DNA of 64,000 bases from Verrucomicrobiota bacterium (GTDB lineage: Bacteria > Verrucomicrobiota > Verrucomicrobiia > Limisphaerales > AAA164-E04). The translations under genes and the position numbers were made by a program. Below the pieces are notes generated by a model, which saw nothing but the letters and a program-made list of their open reading frames with translations, made no database searches and was not told the origin of the DNA. Of this stretch, positions 6,701 through 24,526 are shown one piece after another. Location: the NCBI GenBank assembly GCA_047947115.1, contig CP170459.1, positions 4,288,001-4,352,000 of the forward strand. Reading direction: 5' to 3'. Positions within the stretch are counted from its first letter, which is position 1, and the number at the start of each line of letters is the position of its first letter.

Positions 6701-7242
6701 CCTTGATTCGCACCTTCTTTTCGATAAACGATGGTTCCGTCGACCACCTTCAGGTCATTGAGATCCAATCTGGGAAGAGGTGCATCAGGGCTGGGCGGCA
6801 GGCTGTTCAACCAATCTGTCAGATTACTGCTCCCGTCCTCGCGTTCGGTGATGGTGACTTTGGGATTCTGCAGATGAAGCTGATTTAACTTGATCGTTCC
6901 GCCGATAATGTCCCCCAGGCTGTATTGAACAGTCGCCCGTTGAGCCGAAACCATGGTTTCCTGATCGGCGGGCGAAAAATCCAGATCCTCGATTTCAATG
7001 CCTGTCAGAGGACTGAAAGAAACCTTGCCAACAGTGACCTTGGCCATCATCGAGTTTTCCACCATTGGAAGCACGATGGATCGAACAAAGAACGAGCTTC
7101 CAATTACAAGATATACTCCAATCAGCAACAAACAGCCCAGTCCTCCAGCTATCGCCGCGCGCTTGGGCCAAGGATTTTTCTTCGTGTTTTCCGCAGAATT
7201 ATCTAAGCCAGATTTTGATGGATCGTGAGTCGAATCAGTCAT
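3718..7242 (-). CDS. AsmA-family protein
   Basis: N-terminal TM anchor, long beta-rich body, AsmA-like N- and C-terminal regions, 1174 aa. Confidence 0.7.
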   Translation of the reverse strand: MTDSTHDPSKSGLDNSAENTKKNPWPKRAAIAGGLGCLLLIGVYLVIGSSFFVRSIVLPMVENSMMAKVTVGKVSFSPLTGIEIEDLDFSPADQETMVSAQRATVQYSLGDIIGGTIKLNQLHLQNPKVTITEREDGSSNLTDWLNSLPPSPDAPLPRLDLNDLKVVDGTIVYRKEGANQGGSQVEIALSKAHVSRVGQDLSGSINLESLIRMTTLNASSNEEEELLSTQMMLKGDLDLNADLFPKKSSLSGSIEVRSTSTDYADLKGVGGAMALTVQPDSIDEASIRFSKNGQAAGSIELSGPMKFDTLEGDLQLALSGLNRQFLNLAGALAGLDFGDTVIDGTLTCSLTKGGSYIALSTVTTAKDFSLETQGMALPKMDTELKMVAHYDADQESVNIREWSVSASNNNRTWLEGNIDKPVTLSWGLNRQNFQDSKFQLSLKQMDLVPWNSLLGGVVQQGEVNGNLDVAFLQQGKRIQASGSGELTKAHLSVNNQILANHRVKVETGFTIQDFARLILDQIQMEWVNGSEEVVASASGSGAYHIEKPGMQLQLDASGDLPLLSAFLPVDGLVVEKGSGKLTARVQQKEDGWSGNVQTALSDYTGSFAGLQFQRSSVDFGTDGSLQGDKFRLGNTQVAFKEGYELGGSIGLSGDLDLASLKGAFKIQSNGINRHALQPVLGVHSGEGPFKDVGMDLNGELDLDPAAESSFQGKVDITNLQYEDAETKDIRKLMTELVWDLGWTADQLDIREGTLKLSPTAKAGNILKLSGHLPMQLSIASKAAVNLSSASMDLTPYMDLLTAHAETTTDTPQAQNATPEPASQSADPAPLDVPLGELDAQLDIGKLFMRELSLQAFKGRMLWQTNTLHLEPVSMQLNDAPVQASLHMDFTKPDWGYVLNFDVQNIPVQALTDTLDPANKGKVSGLLTAKGDWSGAGLTEPALQQHLSGSMSMQYSDANIELVSPTVRLLMTPITALLRLPELMKAPITGMEAHVGVQNQVLSLKDTKVLSDAFQVHTGGDIPLANVLTNSVLNLPVAFHLERSIARKSNLIPYSAPKDAPFVKLPDFVSLQGTVGKPETKTDKLVLSGLLMKSTAGLPLNVGEGAVNALKGVGNFLVGDSGKKENEEAGAGDPKKEGEQESPGGVLQQVNPFKLFNQLGGSRNKQQEEPAKEDQ

Positions 7243-17459: not shown

Positions 17460-20400
17460 TCACGAACGTTTGCGGGGCCTCCCCGCCCTCAACACCCGCA
17501 ACGAAAATCCCCTCCCATTCTCATAAGGTTCCACCCGGGCGTTGACCTCCAGCACCGGATACCTCACCGTGGCCAATCCGTAACTCCGATACGTCGAGGC
17601 AAACAACTCCGTCTCCACCATCCCCGTCCAGTCCGCCAGGGTCAGGAATTTCATGGGCTCACCGGTAACCTGATGATGCAATCGCTGCTCAATCACCAAG
17701 CCACAGGTGGTGATTTCCTGTCCGATATAATGTCCCAGGCGTTTCACCGGACAATAGGTCTCCCACGCCACCTCCGGATGCAGATCCAGCAGATGACCCG
17801 ACACCGGGAACCCCAGAGCCTCGTCCTCCCATTCCAGACGCTGTTGCCATGAAGGCTCCTGCAACGTGGTTTTCGGCAAACGCTCCGTGTCCGGCGGCGG
17901 CAACAACCAGCCCTGATCCGGACATTCCCGATCCGAAAAAGTCCGGTTCAAAAACTGTGACACCCAGAACTGGGACGTACGCGTCTTGCCAAACGCATCA
18001 AATGCCCCCACACGAATCAAGCGTTCCATCTCATCCGCCAGCGGAAACACCCGCCGGTGGAAATCAGCCATCGAAACAAACTTTCCCTTCGCACGTTCGT
18101 TGACCACCCGTTGCACCGTTTGATCCGTCAGGCCCTTGATCGCGCTCAACGGCACGCGAATGCCCCGCTTCGCCAGGCGATGACGTTGTGATGTCTGACG
18201 GGACTCGGCAGGATCCCCCAAACGCTCCACCTGATAACCGGGGCCCGGGGCTTGGATCGAAGGCGGCAACAGAGGAATCCCCAGACGATCGCACTCCAGC
18301 ACATAAACCAGCGGATGATAAAACCCCTTCCCTTGCGTCAACACCGAGGCCATGAACTCGGCGGGAAAATAACACTTCATCCAGGCCGACTGATATGCCT
18401 CCACCCCGTAGGCCGTGCTGTGCGCCTTGCAGAACGCGTAGCCATTGAAGCCGCTGACCAGTTCCCACACCTCTTGAATTTTCTCCTCTCCATGCCCGCG
18501 CTTGAGCGCCGAGGCGAAAAACTCGCGACGAATCTCCTCAATCGTGGCCGCCTTCCGCTTATTCAACGCACGCCGCAGCACATCCGCACGCCCCGGTGGC
18601 AGCCCGGCAAACCGCTCGCTGATCTGCAGAATGTGTTCCTCATAAACGACCAGACCAAAGGTGCTCCGCAAACAATCGGCCAACGAAGGATGCGGATAGA
18701 CAGGTTCCTCCATCTTCTGATAACGGCGAGTGAAACGAAGTTTCTTCTGTTCATTGGCCGCCCCCGGGCGAATCACCGACACGATGGCCACCAGCCCGTC
18801 AATCTCCCGTACATTACACATCCTGCAGAGACTCACCATGGCCGGACTCTCGATATGATGCACCGCGCGCGCGCCGCCCCCGGCAATCATCGCCCAGACC
18901 TTCGGGTCCGTCCACGGATCGGTCTCCGGCGCTGCGATCGTCTCGGGAGGCCCATCTTCACCCGGCTGCATGATGCGCCACTGACATCGATCCAGATCCA
19001 TCCGAATCCCGCGCACCTGCAACATCTCCCCGACATCCCGCATCACCGACAAGCCGCCCTGGGCCAGGATATCCATCTTGACCAGACCGATTTCTTCCAC
19101 GGCATCCATGTCGAAATGCGTCGTCGGGTATCCCTTGTTCGCCTTGAACGTCGGGGTGAGATGATGCATCGGTTGACGGGACAACACCACGCCACAGGGA
19201 TGCATCTTCGGATAACGCGGAAACCCGTCCAGAAACTCCGCCATCCGCAAAGCCGTCGAATAGGGTTCTTCCTGGAGTGGCAGATCGCGGCATTCCTGAT
19301 TCCGGGCAATGAAGCTGCTCATGTCCCGCGCGCCTGCATAAGGAAACCGTTCGGTTACCCGCCGGATCTGATATTCCGAAACGCCCAATACCTTGGCGAC
19401 ATCCCCCATCGCTCCGCGTGATTTGTAGGTCGAAAAACCACCCACCACGGCACAGTATTTCTCACCGTATTTGCGGAAGATCAGGTCAATCACATCATCC
19501 TTCCGGTCATGAGGAAAATCCACATCGATATCCGGTAACTTGTGCAAGGCCATGCGGTCCTTGTTCAGAAAACGTTTAAAATACAGTTCAAACCGAATCG
19601 GACACACATCACTGATTCGAAGGCAATAACACACCAACGAATCCGCCGCGCTCCCCCGTGTGATCCAATGAATCCCCGCCGCCCGGCAATCCTGCAACAG
19701 ATTCCACACCACCAGGAAATATTCCTCGTAGCCCACATCATGAATGATCGCCAGTTCCTCCTCCACCTGACGTTGCACACGTTCGCGCCGGGACGCCGGA
19801 TAACGTTCCGCCAGTCCCTTCATCACCAGCTTGCGCAGAAAAGATCGCGGCGACGAACCATCCGGCGGACGGTAATCCGGAAACTGCGGCGGCCCCAACG
19901 GCATCTGGAAATCACGACAACGCTCTGCAATCTCCCGGGTGCGTTCAAACACTTGCGGATGCTCCTTCCACAAATCCCGCCAGGTGTGCATGACCGGATA
20001 ATGCAAGGTCCCGCTCTGATCCTTGTCGGGATGACGCTGCTTCAGCAAGGTCAGGGTGCGAATGGACTGCACCACATCGTATTTCCAATAATCTTTCGGC
20101 AAGGCATAATGCACCGGCGTCACCGCCACGACAGGACTCTGTTGATCGGCAAATTTTTTCAATACCCCGGGATGTTCCGCCCCGCGGTAAAACCGGTTTT
20201 CAAAAAAGGATTCAAGTCGGGGATCCTTTCCAATCGCGATCAAACCATCCGTCGGAACCGAAGCCAATTGATGCCGCGTCCAATGCCCGTGTCCGCTCAA
20301 ACGCCGGATCAGAGCCGTCGATTCCTGCGAGGCATCGGAAACCGGTTTCTTCCGCCCTTTCCGTCCGCGTTGCAAAGGCACGGGCGGCGGTTTCTCGACG

Positions 20401-22088
20401 GGTGATTTGGACGAAAGCAGTTGGCACAGGTTGCGGTAACCGGTTTCGTTCTGCGCATATAGCAGCAAGGGCTCGCCATCCACACCGATCTCCGCCCCGA
20501 TGACCGGTTGAATCCCCTGTTCTTTGGCGCATTGATAAAACGGCACCGCGCCATGCAGGTTCCCCTGGTCCACCATGGCCACGGCGGGTTGCTGTTGCTC
20601 GCAGGCCAAGCGCACGACATCCTCTACCGACAAGGCCGAGTTCAGAAAGGAGTAATAACTTTTGACGTTCAACGCCACCGGCGTCACCACACGACGACGC
20701 ACCGGGGTTGACCGGGAAACCGGTGCCCGATCACCGCGTCCAGCATCCACCGCATCCCCATAGCGGGATGCGCGCTCGGTCATGACTTGTCCCGTAGCCG
20801 GGGAGGGTGGATACACTCGTATCTGCCGTCCTGTGACGCCATCCGTTCGTTCGCGAGAAGGTTTTTCCGATTCTTCGCGTCCGGGGTTTTGTTCGTGTTG
20901 TTTGACCGCGTCCCGCAAAATGAAATCATGCCCACGCAGAATCGCACCGGGACCGCACCGACGCTTCAGATCATCCACGATCCGCGCCAGGCGACGGCGT
21001 GATTCACGTTGTTCGGAAGCACGGTCGAGGGTCAGTTCGCTGCGATAAAAACTGTCGTAAATATTGGACAACTTGAGCGACACCAAACGCAGACTCACCC
21101 GCCGCCGCCAGGCCTTGCGCAACAGGATGCCCAAGCGACCGTAGATATCGGTCTCCAGATCGGTGGGTTCCTCCAGACTTTCCCCGCATTGATCCTCCAT
21201 CATGTCGTTGTAACGCACCTTGACGGTCAGGGTGCGGACGCATTTGCCATCCGCACGCACCTTGGCCATGAGTGTGTCGGCCATGCGCCGCAAGGTGGCC
21301 TCAATGCGATCCTCATCGGTCTGATCTTCTCCGAACGTTTCCTGTTTCCCATACGACTTGGCCGGTGCGGATACCGCCACGATGGGGCGATCATCCACCC
21401 CGTCGGCATACTCCCGGATGCGCGGCGCAATGTTCCCCAGAATCAAATGCAACAGATCCGTCGAAGTCGCCGAAATCTGCCCGATCCGGGCCAACCCGGC
21501 GGCATTCAAACGCGACGCCGTCTTGGCTCCGATCCCCGGCAACCAATGGTTGGGCAGCGGATGCAGAAACGGAATTTCATACCCCTTCTCGATCTCCTGA
21601 AATGCGGCGGGTTTGTGCAGTTTGGACGCGATCTGGCTGATCAGTTTGTTCGTGCCGATTCCTTCGCTGACCGTAATTTTCAGCGATTGACCAATGGCTT
21701 TGCGAATGATCTGGGCGATTTCGGACGCCGGTTTGCGCACGCCGGAAAGGTCGAAGTAACCTTCATCGATCGAAGTGATCTCCACATCCGGCGTAAAATC
21801 ATAGGCATACGAAAACATCCAGCGGGAGAAGCGTTCGTATTTCTCGTAATCCCCCGGCAACAGAATCAGTTTCGGACACAACTTCCGCGCCTGTACCGTC
21901 GGCATCGGAGTATAAATCCCGAATTTCCGCGCCTCATACGACGCCGCGGCGATGATCCCCCTTTTCTCGCCCCCCACCGCCACCGGCTTGCCCCGCAACC
22001 GCGTATCAGACGCCTGCTCCACCGAAGCAAAAAAAGCGTCCGCATCCAAATGAACCATCGTTCGTCGCAATGGAGAAGCACCTGCCAT
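17460..22088 (-). CDS. Fused Y-family DNA polymerase (DinB-like) and DnaE2-type error-prone Pol III alpha
   Basis: aa 1-~395: HLDADAFFASVE, ASYEARKFG, SIDEGYFDL. From aa ~471: PHP domain, TRGSAADS, PDIDVDF, HPCGVV, KMDIL, GYAFCKAH, C-terminal OB fold. One uninterrupted frame. Confidence 0.93.
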   Translation of the reverse strand: MAGASPLRRTMVHLDADAFFASVEQASDTRLRGKPVAVGGEKRGIIAAASYEARKFGIYTPMPTVQARKLCPKLILLPGDYEKYERFSRWMFSYAYDFTPDVEITSIDEGYFDLSGVRKPASEIAQIIRKAIGQSLKITVSEGIGTNKLISQIASKLHKPAAFQEIEKGYEIPFLHPLPNHWLPGIGAKTASRLNAAGLARIGQISATSTDLLHLILGNIAPRIREYADGVDDRPIVAVSAPAKSYGKQETFGEDQTDEDRIEATLRRMADTLMAKVRADGKCVRTLTVKVRYNDMMEDQCGESLEEPTDLETDIYGRLGILLRKAWRRRVSLRLVSLKLSNIYDSFYRSELTLDRASEQRESRRRLARIVDDLKRRCGPGAILRGHDFILRDAVKQHEQNPGREESEKPSRERTDGVTGRQIRVYPPSPATGQVMTERASRYGDAVDAGRGDRAPVSRSTPVRRRVVTPVALNVKSYYSFLNSALSVEDVVRLACEQQQPAVAMVDQGNLHGAVPFYQCAKEQGIQPVIGAEIGVDGEPLLLYAQNETGYRNLCQLLSSKSPVEKPPPVPLQRGRKGRKKPVSDASQESTALIRRLSGHGHWTRHQLASVPTDGLIAIGKDPRLESFFENRFYRGAEHPGVLKKFADQQSPVVAVTPVHYALPKDYWKYDVVQSIRTLTLLKQRHPDKDQSGTLHYPVMHTWRDLWKEHPQVFERTREIAERCRDFQMPLGPPQFPDYRPPDGSSPRSFLRKLVMKGLAERYPASRRERVQRQVEEELAIIHDVGYEEYFLVVWNLLQDCRAAGIHWITRGSAADSLVCYCLRISDVCPIRFELYFKRFLNKDRMALHKLPDIDVDFPHDRKDDVIDLIFRKYGEKYCAVVGGFSTYKSRGAMGDVAKVLGVSEYQIRRVTERFPYAGARDMSSFIARNQECRDLPLQEEPYSTALRMAEFLDGFPRYPKMHPCGVVLSRQPMHHLTPTFKANKGYPTTHFDMDAVEEIGLVKMDILAQGGLSVMRDVGEMLQVRGIRMDLDRCQWRIMQPGEDGPPETIAAPETDPWTDPKVWAMIAGGGARAVHHIESPAMVSLCRMCNVREIDGLVAIVSVIRPGAANEQKKLRFTRRYQKMEEPVYPHPSLADCLRSTFGLVVYEEHILQISERFAGLPPGRADVLRRALNKRKAATIEEIRREFFASALKRGHGEEKIQEVWELVSGFNGYAFCKAHSTAYGVEAYQSAWMKCYFPAEFMASVLTQGKGFYHPLVYVLECDRLGIPLLPPSIQAPGPGYQVERLGDPAESRQTSQRHRLAKRGIRVPLSAIKGLTDQTVQRVVNERAKGKFVSMADFHRRVFPLADEMERLIRVGAFDAFGKTRTSQFWVSQFLNRTFSDRECPDQGWLLPPPDTERLPKTTLQEPSWQQRLEWEDEALGFPVSGHLLDLHPEVAWETYCPVKRLGHYIGQEITTCGLVIEQRLHHQVTGEPMKFLTLADWTGMVETELFASTYRSYGLATVRYPVLEVNARVEPYENGRGFSLRVLRAGRPRKRS

Positions 22089-22090
22089 AC

Positions 22091-22104
22091 TGTTCGCTTG
22101 AACA
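22091..22104. promoter_or_regulatory. LexA (SOS) box, Verrucomicrobia-type TGTTC-N4-GAACA
   Basis: TGTTC-GCTT-GAACA within the extended palindrome ATACTGTTC-GCTT-GAACAGTAT, 2 nt upstream of the ATG. Confidence 0.85.
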
Positions 22105-22129
22105 GTATCTGAACGACGAGCGGTGTCAA
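22102..22129 (-). promoter_or_regulatory. sigma70 promoter of the polymerase fusion
   Basis: Minus strand TTGACA-16 nt-TACTGT; the -10 overlaps the SOS box. Confidence 0.65.
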
Positions 22130-22130
22130 T

Positions 22131-22277
22131 TTAGGTTTTAGCTTTTAGGTTTTAGATGTTAGCTTTTAGCTTTTAGTTTTTAGCCGTTAGCCGTTAGCCG
22201 TTAGCCGTTAGCCGTTAGCCGTTAGCCGTTAGCCGTTAGTCGTTAGCCGTTAGTCGTTAGCCGTTAGTCGTTAGCTG
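22131..22277. repeat. Heptamer tandem repeat (TTAGNNN) x21
   Basis: TTAGGTT/TTAGCTT units grading into TTAGCCG/TTAGTCG, exact 7-bp phase over 147 bp. Confidence 0.95.
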
Positions 22278-23307
22278 TCTTCCCATCTTCTCCACGTGAC
22301 AGAATACGATAGATTTTGGTGCGATTGATGCCCAGGAGTTTAGCTGCTTTGGACATATTGCCGTCCGCTTTGGTTAGGGCACGCCGGGTGAGTATGAATT
22401 CGGCTTCTTCCAGATTATCAGGCAATTCCGGATCAGCCCCATGGCTTCCACTCTCAGTTTCAACTTGAGACAGACCCTGTGCTTCACTCGGCTGCTGCAG
22501 TCGCAATTGCCTGGCATCGATAATACCTGCGGGAGATTCAATGGTGGCGCGTTCCAGGATGCTTTTGAGTTCACGAACATTGCCAGGAAATGCGTAATCC
22601 ATCAGCGCTTTCCAGGCATTTTCGCTCAGGGATGGTGTGATTCGCCCCAGTTCCACAGCAAAACGATGGAGAAAATGCGCAGTCAGCAGTTCGACATCCT
22701 CACGGCGTTCCCGCAAGGGCTGTAATTCAATTTCATCTCCCACTATAAAACCACGAGCTGCGCTCCTTTCATCCCCAAAGGCATCGATTGAAACTGATAA
22801 TGGATCTGAACCAACCAAATTGCCATTGATATAAAATTTAATGTCCTCAGGTCCAGCAACCGCCGCCACATGCATCCATTCCCCAATCCGGATATAATCG
22901 CGCATCGTCATACGATTTGTTCCTTGGGAAGTTAGGATAAAAAAATTAATGTCTGCCGTTCCATTTCCTCGATGGATACTAAAACCATCTTGACCGGAAA
23001 CGTATAAGAAAATGCTATCTTGTCCTGACAGATCATCCCACCGAACCCAAGTCTCAATCGTCAATGCTGACAAGGTTTTGAACACCTCATATCCACCGTT
23101 TTCAAGTTCGATGTAAGAATCGTCTTCCGAAAATTGAAGCACATGATTTGGCAAGATTTGGTCCTGCCCAAAGAGCGCAGTCGTGTGGGTTAATCCGAGA
23201 ATGAGGAAGGACAATGTTATCCACCCCCGCAATCCAAGCTGGATTGAATGACACACCGACAGAACGTCGCGTTTTGCTTCTAAGGTTTTCATGGACATTT
23301 CAAGCAT
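22264..23307 (-). CDS. Chimeric or internally deleted protein: signal peptide, LamG-like domain, C-terminal part of a sigma54 activator and Fis-type HTH
   Basis: LTIETWVRWD...WMHVAAV...FYINGNLVG, then abruptly IELQPLRERREDVELL...FPGNVRELKSILERA...GNMSKAAKLLGINRTKIYR; no Walker A/B or GAFTGA. Confidence 0.7.
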   Translation of the reverse strand: MLEMSMKTLEAKRDVLSVCHSIQLGLRGWITLSFLILGLTHTTALFGQDQILPNHVLQFSEDDSYIELENGGYEVFKTLSALTIETWVRWDDLSGQDSIFLYVSGQDGFSIHRGNGTADINFFILTSQGTNRMTMRDYIRIGEWMHVAAVAGPEDIKFYINGNLVGSDPLSVSIDAFGDERSAARGFIVGDEIELQPLRERREDVELLTAHFLHRFAVELGRITPSLSENAWKALMDYAFPGNVRELKSILERATIESPAGIIDARQLRLQQPSEAQGLSQVETESGSHGADPELPDNLEEAEFILTRRALTKADGNMSKAAKLLGINRTKIYRILSRGEDGKTAND

Positions 23308-23459: not shown

Positions 23460-23501
23460 TTAGCTCTTAGCTCTTAGCTTTTAGCAGTTAGCTTTTAGGT
23501 T
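23460..23501. repeat. Heptamer tandem repeat (TTAGNNN) x6
   Basis: TTAGCTC TTAGCTC TTAGCTT TTAGCAG TTAGCTT TTAGGTT. Confidence 0.85.
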
Positions 23502-24526
23502 TTGGTGCTTCCTGTGTGGTAGGCGATGATGCGGGTTTGGGGGGGGAATGTGTTTTTGCGAACCAGGTCCATGAGTCCGAACATCATTTTGCCAGTGTAA
23601 ACAGGGTCCAGGGCCACGTTTTGTGTTTGCTCGAAAGATTGACAGAAGGCGCGTAGCGTTTCATCGGATTTCGCGTAGCCTCCGAAGTGGTAGCGTGTTT
23701 CTATCGACCAACGCTGTGCACCGATGGGGTGTCCTTCCAGGAGTCGCTCGACTTCTTTTTCAAGGAAAGCACCTCCTTTCAATGATGAAAAGCCCAGTGC
23801 GGTCACATCTTTTTGAGCGCCTGAGACGATCCCGGCCAAGGTGCCGCCTGTTCCGACCGAACAACACACATAGTCGTGAGGTGTGGTAAGGCGTTCGACC
23901 ATTTCCCGGGTTCCTTTCACAGCCAATGGCCACGATCCCCCCTCGGGTAGGACAAGACAGGGAGACCATTGGGTTTCCAATTGGCGGGTGAAAGCGGGAT
24001 CATGTTTTTGCCGATAACGTTCCCGTGAAATCCCCTCAAGATGCATTCCCCAACGTTGGGCCTGGGACAGCACCGGATTGAGCGCTCTGGCTTCATCACC
24101 TCGCACCAGCCCCACTGTTTTGAAACCGAAAAGGTGTCCGGCCCCCGCTACGGCAAGCAAGTGATTGGAATAGGCACCCCCGAAAGTCACCAAGGTGGTC
24201 TTCCCCTGCTCCGCAGCGTGGATGAGAGCATGCTTTAGCTTCCACCATTTGTTGCCGGCGATCATGGGGTGCAGCAAATCATCCCGGACCAGATCAATGG
24301 TCACATCACGCTCTTTCAACTCGAAAAGATCCACGCGATGCAATCGCAACGGTTTTCCCTGTGCCGCAAAGAAATCCCGAATACAACCTGTCCGTGGGTG
24401 ATCACATACAGGGGATAGGGATTTGCTTTTTTGAACCGCAGATTTCACAGATTTACGCAGATTTTTTTTATTAGTATTGAGATAATTTGAGTCTGCTTGG
24501 CAATGAGAGCTGACAGAGTCATGCAT
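23495..24526 (-). CDS. PLP enzyme, ACC deaminase / D-cysteine desulfhydrase family
   Basis: RDDLLHP..AGNKWWKL, TFGGAYSNH, LPEGGS, VGTGGTLAG, LDPVYTGK, HTG; true start probably ~24400. Confidence 0.85.
   Translation of the reverse strand: MHDSVSSHCQADSNYLNTNKKNLRKSVKSAVQKSKSLSPVCDHPRTGCIRDFFAAQGKPLRLHRVDLFELKERDVTIDLVRDDLLHPMIAGNKWWKLKHALIHAAEQGKTTLVTFGGAYSNHLLAVAGAGHLFGFKTVGLVRGDEARALNPVLSQAQRWGMHLEGISRERYRQKHDPAFTRQLETQWSPCLVLPEGGSWPLAVKGTREMVERLTTPHDYVCCSVGTGGTLAGIVSGAQKDVTALGFSSLKGGAFLEKEVERLLEGHPIGAQRWSIETRYHFGGYAKSDETLRAFCQSFEQTQNVALDPVYTGKMMFGLMDLVRKNTFPPQTRIIAYHTGSTKT

Follow-up and report, generated by a model that had tools for sequence, protein, structure and literature searches.

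Introduction

The way in which a second DnaE and a Y-family protein work together during SOS mutagenesis is yet to be settled; the system known best has a catalytically dead Y-family member, and reconstituting that complex is difficult. Here we describe a locus that poses the question within one gene. In a stretch of 64,000 nucleotides (nt) from a Verrucomicrobiota bacterium (assembly GCA_047947115.1, contig CP170459.1, C1:4288001-4352000; hereafter the window), part of a genome that consists of one 6.08-Mb contig, a minus-strand gene encodes a Y-family polymerase (PolY) and a DnaE-type polymerase as a single protein of 1542 amino acids (aa). Is this fusion real, are both polymerases likely to be active, and what might control and recruit them? 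We show here that the fusion is genuine and common in Verrucomicrobiota, and we propose that it is an enzyme of translesion synthesis, induced by damage, whose two active sites would work on one clamp-tethered polypeptide, a proposal whose probability we put at roughly 0.6. An earlier, sequence-only reading of the same DNA had described the gene as a one-gene SOS mutasome, with an apparently active DinB joined to an apparently active DnaE2 under a LexA box; its claims are taken up below with the results that bear on them.

Relatives of such a protein are known as separate genes. In the available parts of two studies, modules without ImuA and ImuB are described that consist of an active PolY, the DnaE variant DnaE2B and RecA (PMC6511836; PMC12926913), and DnaE2B is reported from genomes without ImuA and ImuB, where its partners are often PolYs, active or inactive, with a motif of the RecA N-terminus type (PMC12926913). 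The parts of both papers covered describe unfused modules and not the fusion. In the second, the main text uses the word "fused" for other proteins only, and the word is absent from one supplementary file available in part (PMC12926913). Full-text literature searches did not find a published study of a PolY-DnaE fusion, in agreement with the sequence-only reading, which knew of no biochemical characterisation. The fusion is recognised in annotation, while its mechanism (two sites in cis, a clamp tether in the DnaE half and possible activation by RecA) is what we infer here from sequence.

Results and discussion

The polY-dnaE fusion is genuine and widespread

The gene is a single unbroken open reading frame (ORF) of 1542 codons plus stop, as had been claimed earlier; the end coordinate then given, 22129, covers the operator and the -35 hexamer besides the ORF. 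Six Pfam domains follow one another in the order IMS, IMS_C, PHP, DNA_pol3_alpha, DNA_pol3_finger and HHH_6 (Table 1). All domains that had been expected were found except OB, which Pfam does not call in the fused protein and which is visible only through alignment to DnaE models. Every sequence string quoted in the sequence-only reading was located in the protein, namely HLDADAF (13-19), SIDEG (106-110), SELTL (350-354) and LARIVDDLKRRCGPGAILRG (367-386), followed in the DnaE half by LNVKS (473-477), PDIDVD (852-857) and KMD (1004-1006). Its low-complexity linker of ~75 aa coincides with residues ~395-470, where conservation across 120 relatives is lowest and gaps are most frequent.

These relatives come from a search of 5.8 billion clustered proteins, which gave 2449 matches at E<=0.001; all 120 of the matches listed have the full six-domain architecture, with lengths of 1388-1763 aa and identities of 54-100%. 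Independently sampled loci give the same picture. A species-level scan with one genome per species, for which an alignment of 29 fused proteins served as query, yielded 640 relatives. Among the best 80 loci, which were analysed, 66 contain a frame with the PolY motifs, and in 62 of those it is a single frame of at least 1350 aa. The remaining loci are mostly fragments at contig ends, and two (L121 and L148) match the C half alone. Such recurrence of the fusion lies far outside what chance could produce. An artefact of assembly or gene calling, or a pseudogene that joins two genes, is therefore hardly conceivable: 120 of 120 listed relatives of many sources, one of them identical, and 62 independent assemblies carry the same fusion, the genome itself is one contig without a stop or frameshift in the gene, and no supporting point was found for an error. 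That relatives might always encode two genes is likewise false, although two split relatives exist and are discussed below.

Record titles of the fused loci are nearly all Verrucomicrobiota, Pedosphaera, Limisphaerales or "subdivision 3" metagenome-assembled genomes (MAGs). Four of 401 evenly sampled Verrucomicrobiota species genomes have the fused frame (our genome, G000, and G174, G330 and G342). This distribution was taken from a search with the PolY half, since a search of the same genomes with the model NF004225 listed canonical DnaE2 and DnaE1 and never the fusion. Databases mostly label the fusions as Pol III alpha, as the sequence-only reading had guessed; NCBI names for members are "fused DNA polymerase IV/DNA polymerase III subunit alpha" and otherwise Pol III alpha, Pol IV, PolC or error-prone polymerase. 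As an observation aside, the fusion records L079, L107, L124, L126, L134, L144, L151 and L152 bear implausible titles (Chitinophaga, Klebsiella, Bifidobacterium or Bifidobacteriaceae, and Enterobacteriaceae MAGs), and these bins are probably mislabelled.

Both polymerase sites are invariant

In the alignment of the 120 fused proteins, the Y-family carboxylates D15, D17, D108 and E109 are each conserved in all 120, and so are the palm aspartates of the DnaE half, D853, D855 and D857 (PDIDVD) and D1006 (KMD). With these residues kept, both sites appear to be active, in line with the earlier reading. The loss of carboxylates that marks ImuB is not seen in the N half, whose best NCBIfam match is the Pol IV model NF002677 (252.1 bits, under the cut-off of 256). 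The standalone DinB of the same genome, a protein of 367 aa that scores 346 bits, is 34% identical to the fused N half. A different picture emerges for the PHP domain, where N474 and K476 replace the first two histidines, as had been noted before; in the family, histidine lies outside the four commonest residues at position 474 and occupies position 476 in 70/120. A functional PHP proofreading site is unlikely because this first metal motif is degenerate.

Could one half alone be catalytically relevant, with PolY as an ImuB-like scaffold that adapts the enzyme to clamp and RecA, or with DnaE as a tether to clamp and DNA? According to the available parts of the literature (PMC6511836; PMC12926913), ImuA-ImuB-DnaE2, the canonical system, uses its Y-family member as a scaffold, and a tail with motifs of the clamp type and the RecA N-terminus type is ImuB-like. 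Still, we consider such a division of labour unlikely, as the invariance of both catalytic sites, which holds down to 54% identity, is hard to explain unless both activities are selected, and as the clamp motif of PolY, a scaffold feature, is exactly what decayed.

One clamp motif has decayed and a second, candidate one is kept

The sequence-only reading had seen a clamp-like motif, SELTL, behind the little finger. It does lie at the clamp-motif site, but is a decayed rather than a canonical version: QLxLF is absent from the fused protein, ELTLD stands in its place, and the family consensus is xELxL(E/D), with E351 in 112/120, L352 in 118/120, L354 in 115/120 and an acidic residue at 355 in 101/120. 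We read it as decayed because standalone and split relatives carry recognisable motifs there. The closest standalone PolYs (44-48% identical, one family, same class) have QL[ED][ML]F followed by KRRRLAAVLDxLN...V(V/I)xHGHQL, and the PolY tails of the split relatives G004 and G005 have QLDLF and QLPLG, respectively.

The DnaE half contains a second candidate, QGWLL at residues 1392-1396, with the family form Q-G-W-L-(L/F), in which Q1392 and L1395 are conserved in 120/120. In the alignment its counterparts are QTSLF, QLSLF and QASLF in DnaE1 rows and QLSLF in the G005 DnaE, at what we take, from E. coli, to be the usual internal clamp-motif site of Pol III alpha. We infer that the clamp tether of the fused protein is the DnaE half. 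The family thereby illustrates a change after fusion, the decay of one of two clamp motifs.

The DnaE half is DnaE2-like but lies outside the canonical DnaE2 family

The earlier label "DnaE2" for the C half did not hold. Against the error-prone DnaE2 model NF004225 the C half scores 511 bits (cut-off 939), whereas canonical DnaE2 members of the same phylum score 1010-1334; such members, above the cut-off, occur in 37/401 Verrucomicrobiota genomes. Its C-terminus, ...RAGRPRKRS, lacks the S(R/H)DF(H) end, as does the fused family, while 9/10 usable canonical DnaE2 rows of the phylum end in RDF or HDF plus one residue. By score, the best NCBIfam match is the DnaE1 model NF004226, with 622 bits against a cut-off of 1002. 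The alignment reaches position 1022/1022 of TIGR00594 and only 1050/1146 of NF004226, and because the match to the DnaE1 model ends there, we regard the tau-binding tail as absent. Both the missing tail and the missing SRDF end had been claimed before and are borne out by these alignments.

When the C half was searched against 1.84 billion representatives, the matches comprised fused representatives and unfused proteins of ~1000 aa with 38-52% identity (P0125, P0127, P0131, P0133, P0134, P0141), besides many proteins of 1000-1080 aa at 30-36% identity and true DnaE1s. The unfused ~1000-aa proteins fall under both NCBIfam cut-offs; P0204, P0215, P0231 and P0241 are over the DnaE1 cut-offs. In an unrooted tree built with a single method (FastTree, 64 rows, the mis-extracted row L011, a wrong ORF, being ignored), the fused C halves group with their nearest unfused relatives in one clade (support 97), and another clade on the DnaE1 side (support 100) holds the 10 usable canonical DnaE2 rows. 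The 1231-aa DnaE1 of our genome groups with the rows that pass the DnaE1 cut-offs. Thus, the C half belongs to a clade of tail-less DnaE proteins of ~1000 aa, some of which are paired with a separate PolY gene. Its architecture is DnaE2-like, being SOS-linked and a second DnaE copy without the tau-binding C-terminal domain beside the 1231-aa DnaE1, and it stands outside the canonical DnaE2 family. Compared by description, it most likely corresponds to the DnaE2B group, as far as the available part of the source defines it (PMC12926913).

The same data bear on whether the protein might serve replication, as a Pol III alpha whose Y-family domain is an accessory. The DnaE1 model is indeed its best NCBIfam match by score. 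However, the match stays far under the cut-off, the separate 1231-aa protein is the one that groups with bona fide DnaE1 rows, and the fused protein combines a missing tau-binding tail and a degenerate PHP motif with a LexA-type operator, so that a replicative role is very improbable.

The fusion derives from a gene pair

Two relatives encode the halves separately. G004 has a PolY gene of 402 aa followed by an adjacent DnaE gene of 998 aa (P0134). In G005 (L068) the PolY frame and a DnaE frame of 1020 aa overlap by 55 nt (7083-7137) in different frames, and this DnaE is 50% identical to the fused C half over 894 residues. Identity between the split relatives and the fused protein is 52-53% for PolY and 44-50% for DnaE. 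The split relatives share the tail motif and, in both trees, the clade with the fused protein; they differ from it in having two genes and in keeping canonical or near-canonical clamp motifs (QLDLF, QLPLG, QLSLF). A tree of the N half (IQ-TREE quick, 38 rows, P0126 left out as it has no N-terminal motif) agrees with that of the C half: G004 falls outside the fused clade, and G005 is nested inside it, next to G174. Since the two trees agree, the halves appear to have evolved together, and these relationships indicate that the fusion arose from a polY-dnaE gene pair. For G005, either a secondary split or a frameshift is probable, and such a shift could come from sequencing or be programmed.

The split relatives also raise the possibility that the fusion has no mechanistic meaning, and that a stop codon lost from a polY-dnaE operon joined two independent SOS polymerases, which simply stay co-expressed. 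The adjacent genes of G004 and the overlapping ones of G005 fit this explanation, as does the long, variable and poorly conserved linker. The nesting of G005 among fused forms in both trees adds that the joined state is not obligatory. Nevertheless, the fused state is kept in at least 62 species-level genomes, both halves give the same tree grouping, and after fusion the clamp motif of one half decayed while that of the other was kept, which suggests that the halves share one tether. A fusion without mechanistic consequence therefore seems quite unlikely to us.

The fused gene carries a lexA-type operator and a candidate promoter

SOS control of the fused gene is well supported, because the best palindrome of the genome lies at its start codon, the second best at that of lexA, and lexA is the upstream gene in most relatives; LexA binding and induction by damage are predicted. 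In a scan of the 6.08-Mb genome for the palindrome (16 specified bases), only this locus matches with 0 mismatches, followed by one site with 1 mismatch, one with 2 mismatches and 14 sites with 3 mismatches. The site with 1 mismatch lies at the start codon of lexA (LexA_DNA_bind match at C1:3336567), and the polymerase and lexA have a common layout of TTGAC(A/T), 16 nt, TACTGT and a box ending in ...ACAGTATG. The LexA box of the sequence-only reading is therefore confirmed as a palindrome at the start codon that is shared with lexA.

In relatives, the polymerase usually lacks such a box of its own. TGTTC-N4-GAACA occurs within 300 nt upstream of the polymerase only in L073 and L147 of the 66 PolY-motif loci, and this scarcity led the search to the upstream gene, which is lexA. 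It lies directly upstream and on the same strand in 47/62 fused loci, with both LexA domains confirmed by Pfam in 4/4 upstream genes tested, so that members of the family normally come second in an operon that starts with lexA. Judged by eye and uncounted, most of the 47 lexA promoters have TTGACA, a spacer of 16-17 nt and a 20-bp palindrome TAC(T/C)(G/A)T...A(C/T)(A/G)GTA at or next to the ATG. In our genome and in the 95%-identical relative L073 the polymerase stands apart from lexA with its own lexA-type promoter and operator. L074 and L075 (79% identical) have lexA upstream and still show the right half-box GAACAGTATG at the polymerase start. An SOS gene can thus keep its control after leaving the lexA operon because it carries its own lexA-type promoter and operator. 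This separation from lexA and the comparison of two clamp motifs are particular to the present account.

Some further observations concern operators and upstream genes in the family. The lexA start-codon palindromes vary by lineage (L074-L152), with TACTGTA..TACAGTA, TACTATCCA..TGGATAGTA, TACTACTCA..TGAGTAGTA and TACCGTA..TACGGTA, while their position relative to the TTGACA -35 and the ATG is unchanged in most lineages. This looks like LexA and operator changing together, with near-leaderless lexA mRNAs. The sequence GGACA-N5-TGTCC was considered as a LexA box and rejected, as it lies between lexA and the polymerase in 11/62 loci and upstream of lexA in only 2. It is found ~55 nt before the HLDADAFF codons in L079, L087, L090, L091, L096, L098, L107, L114, L123, L126 and L152, against a background of 5 occurrences in 62 x 3600 nt of coding sequence. 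In L100, L109, L125, L132 and L139 the same-strand upstream gene is not lexA and its product ends in AARWIA.DALREL; the one tested, from L100, is an AlkD-like repair protein with a DNA_alkylation domain. Finally, our genome holds 17 exact TGTTC-N4-GAACA sites, four of which cluster within 10 kb outside the window (C1:1341828-1351509). Two of these four are identical, flanks included, and the cluster may be a repeated or mobile SOS-linked element.

Other polymerases and mutasome components in the genome

The genome contains two matches to PF07733, DnaE1 and the fused gene, and two to PF00817, DinB and the fused gene. The separate dnaE1 asked for by the sequence-only reading thus exists, and a separate dinB besides. 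The PF00817 scan did not detect an ImuB-like or UmuC-like gene, and canonical DnaE2 was not detected in the genome. With the ImuA model NF033429, the one match in the genome was RecA, whose 42.9 bits fall short of the cut-off of 150; this negative is weak, since the narrow model reached its cut-off in no control genome. Within these limits, neither imuA (by the model) nor imuB (by the PF00817 scan) was found in the genome, and no imuA, imuB or other repair gene adjoins the fused gene, as had been stated. The notion of a one-gene mutasome without a partner is too strong in view of lexA upstream in 47/62 relatives and of RecA as a possible partner.

A proposed mechanism and the possible role of RecA

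Taken as a whole, the proposal is as follows. LexA would repress a near-leaderless transcript from TTGACA-N16-TACTGT, and DNA damage would lead to synthesis of the fused protein. The protein would reach stalled forks through QGWLL of the DnaE half, to which we assign clamp recruitment because the PolY clamp motif has decayed. There, the PolY site might insert opposite the lesion and the DnaE site extend, the latter presumably free of proofreading because of its degenerate PHP motif. The helix resembling the RecA N-terminus may recruit RecA in place of ImuA.

This last step concerns the tail helix RRRLARIVDDLKRRCGPGAILRG, which looks like the N-terminus of RecA (in our genome NLDTAIQSITKTFGEGSIMRLG) and forms part of a helix-strand motif conserved within the fused family. 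PolY tails with a motif of this type are reported in the available part of PMC6511836. In an hhalign comparison of the tail profile with a full-length RecA profile, the best local alignment lies on RecA residues 16-46, in the expected register (P 0.036). A complex was also predicted from RecA (26-row alignment) and tail residues 340-400 (alignment of the 29 fused proteins); at least 85% of contacts are common to the runs, and the partner has a predicted local distance difference test (pLDDT) value of at least 63. In the benchmark of this procedure the passing mark was reached by 116/157 solved complexes and 2/215 mismatched pairs, and scores up to 0.60 comprised 18 of the 157 solved complexes and both passing mismatches. 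RecA is plausible, with weak support, as a partner through the tail helix.

Several observations weigh against the proposed translesion enzyme or parts of it. That the catalytic residues are invariant is no proof of a joint action of the two sites at one lesion, nor of the order of inserter and extender. As to the tail, the hhalign probability is just 1.4%, and the predicted RecA-tail complex was graded as "weak support", with a score of 0.39 versus 0.00 for the best of 3 controls. No DUF4113 or RecA-type Pfam match was found in tail residues 330-400 (E<=10) or in four PolY proteins (E<=5), and a hidden Markov model of the tail motif, run against the six-frame genome, recovered only the gene itself, RecA being absent at E<=10. 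As to regulation, the consensus promoter scan does not report TTGACA-N16-TACTGT, because the -10 fits the consensus at 3/6 positions only. The 14-bp core box lies directly before the polymerase in just 3 fused loci (our own, L073 and L147), and recA of our genome (upstream region C1:1538286-1538773) has no LexA-type box within 400 nt. The LexA motif published for Verrucomicrobia is reportedly TGTTC-N4-GAACA. Moreover, the ImuA model missed its cut-off also in the Caulobacter control, a genome that presumably has imuA, and the likely membership of the C half in DnaE2B follows from a description of that group.

A further-reaching version of the clamp-tethered enzyme is a self-contained machine, in which PolY, having given up its own clamp motif after the fusion, would ride on the DnaE clamp tether, insert opposite the lesion and hand the primer in cis to DnaE, with tail-bound RecA replacing ImuA as activator. 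We regard this version as less likely than not. If it is true, the protein would be the first inserter-extender polymerase known from nature as a single chain, and a tractable substitute for the ImuA-ImuB-DnaE2 mutasome. A widespread one-chain protein with both sites under selection would amount to genetic proof that two polymerases act as a unit, and it offers biochemistry and structural biology a single-polypeptide object.

Relation to known systems

In evolutionary terms, the protein is probably a fused form of the ImuA/ImuB-free "PolY + DnaE2B (+RecA)" module. As described in the available parts of its sources, this module (in Bacteroidetes, PolY2 and DnaE2, for example in Cellulophaga algicola) likewise combines an apparently active PolY with an apparently active second DnaE, lacks ImuA and ImuB, neither of which was found in the genome studied here, and is often lexA-linked, like the fused family. 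The PolY tail of the module has a motif of the RecA N-terminus type, which for the fused tail is a resemblance seen by eye and by hhalign (P 0.036) but not by Pfam or a motif hidden Markov model. In contrast to the fused protein, the module consists of separate genes, it comes from Bacteroidetes and not from Verrucomicrobiota, and the decay of the PolY clamp motif distinguishes our family.

The ImuA-ImuB-DnaE2 (ImuC) system of Mycobacterium, Pseudomonas and Caulobacter is similar in joining an SOS-regulated Y-family protein, with clamp-type and RecA-N-terminus-type motifs in its tail, to a non-replicative DnaE. The differences are these: ImuB is catalytically dead, whereas the triad is invariant in the fused protein; ImuA is present there and was not found in our genome; its DnaE2 passes NF004225 and ends in S(R/H)DFH, while the fused C half does neither and falls in another clade; and it comprises three polypeptides instead of one. 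In ImuB a beta-domain (ImuB-C) comes after the RecA-N-terminus motif; in the fused protein the variable linker and PHP follow the RecA-N-terminus-like motif. A third comparison is the UmuD'-requiring Y-family polymerase, which is SOS-induced and binds RecA through its C-terminal tail, as the available part of PMC6511836 describes. A C-family polymerase is missing from it, and the PF00817 scan detected no gene of the UmuC type in our genome.

Features of the locus and neighbouring genes

The coordinates of the gene, its parts and its control region are collected in Table 1.

Table 1. Features of the fused polY-dnaE locus, in window positions, with the basis of each assignment.
Feature	Position	Strand	Basis or remark
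Fused polY-dnaE gene, 1542 aa	17460..22088	-	ORF and Pfam; identical protein in the clustered-protein collection (P0002)
Y-family catalytic core, IMS, residues 14-156, with D15/D17/D108/E109	21621..22049	-	Pfam PF00817, 153.6 bits
Y-family little finger, IMS_C, residues 244-343	21060..21359	-	Pfam PF11799, 69.8 bits
Decayed beta-clamp motif ELTLD, residues 351-355	21024..21038	-	Alignment of 120 relatives
RecA-N-terminus-like helix-strand motif RRRLARIVDDLKRRCGPGAILRGHDFILR, residues 364-392	20913..20999	-	Family conservation; hhalign
Variable linker, residues ~395-470	20679..20906	-	Conservation and occupancy lowest here (120 relatives)
PHP domain start, residues 473-560, first metal motif degenerate (N474, K476)	20409..20672	-	Pfam
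Poorly conserved, gap-rich insert in PHP, residues ~560-612	20253..20411	-	120-protein alignment
Pol III alpha palm/NTPase core, residues 750-1009, with D853/D855/D857/D1006	19062..19841	-	Pfam DNA_pol3_alpha
DNA_pol3_finger, residues 1054-1197	18498..18929	-	Pfam
HhH domain HHH_6, residues 1270-1371	17976..18281	-	Pfam
Candidate internal beta-clamp motif QGWLL, residues 1392-1396	17901..17915	-	Alignment with DnaE1 rows
C-terminal OB-fold region, residues ~1420-1535; the protein ends here	17484..17831	-	Alignment to TIGR00594 and NF004226
LexA-type operator TACTGTTC-AAGC-GAACAGTA, 20-bp palindrome	22088..22107	.	Last base is the A of ATG
Candidate promoter TTGACA (22129-22124), 16-nt spacer, TACTGT (22107-22102)	22102..22129	-	Same layout at own lexA; -10 is the left half of the operator

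Neighbouring genes encode an Fe-S_biosyn protein, a DnaJ-like protein, a DUF5690 protein, a Laminin_G_3/AAA_lid/HTH_8 protein and a PALP enzyme, none of them repair-related. Two adjoining heptamer arrays (TTTAGCT x7.9 and TTAGCCG x13.7 on the plus strand) occupy 22130-22276, in the interval that separates the polymerase -35 from the 3' end of the upstream gene; in them the 14-mer CTAACGGCTAACGG occurs 7 times versus 0 expected; L073 has only a short CTAAAAG/C run at this site. The upstream frame at 22264-23307 (minus strand) encodes a protein of 347 aa with Laminin_G_3, AAA_lid_14 and a Fis-type HTH_8, and with no match to a sigma-54 AAA+ core. In L073 the gene of the PALP enzyme abuts the polymerase promoter instead, and its C-terminus is nearly that of the protein encoded at 23495-24526 in the window, so that the 347-aa Laminin_G_3/HTH_8 gene appears to have been inserted at this locus.

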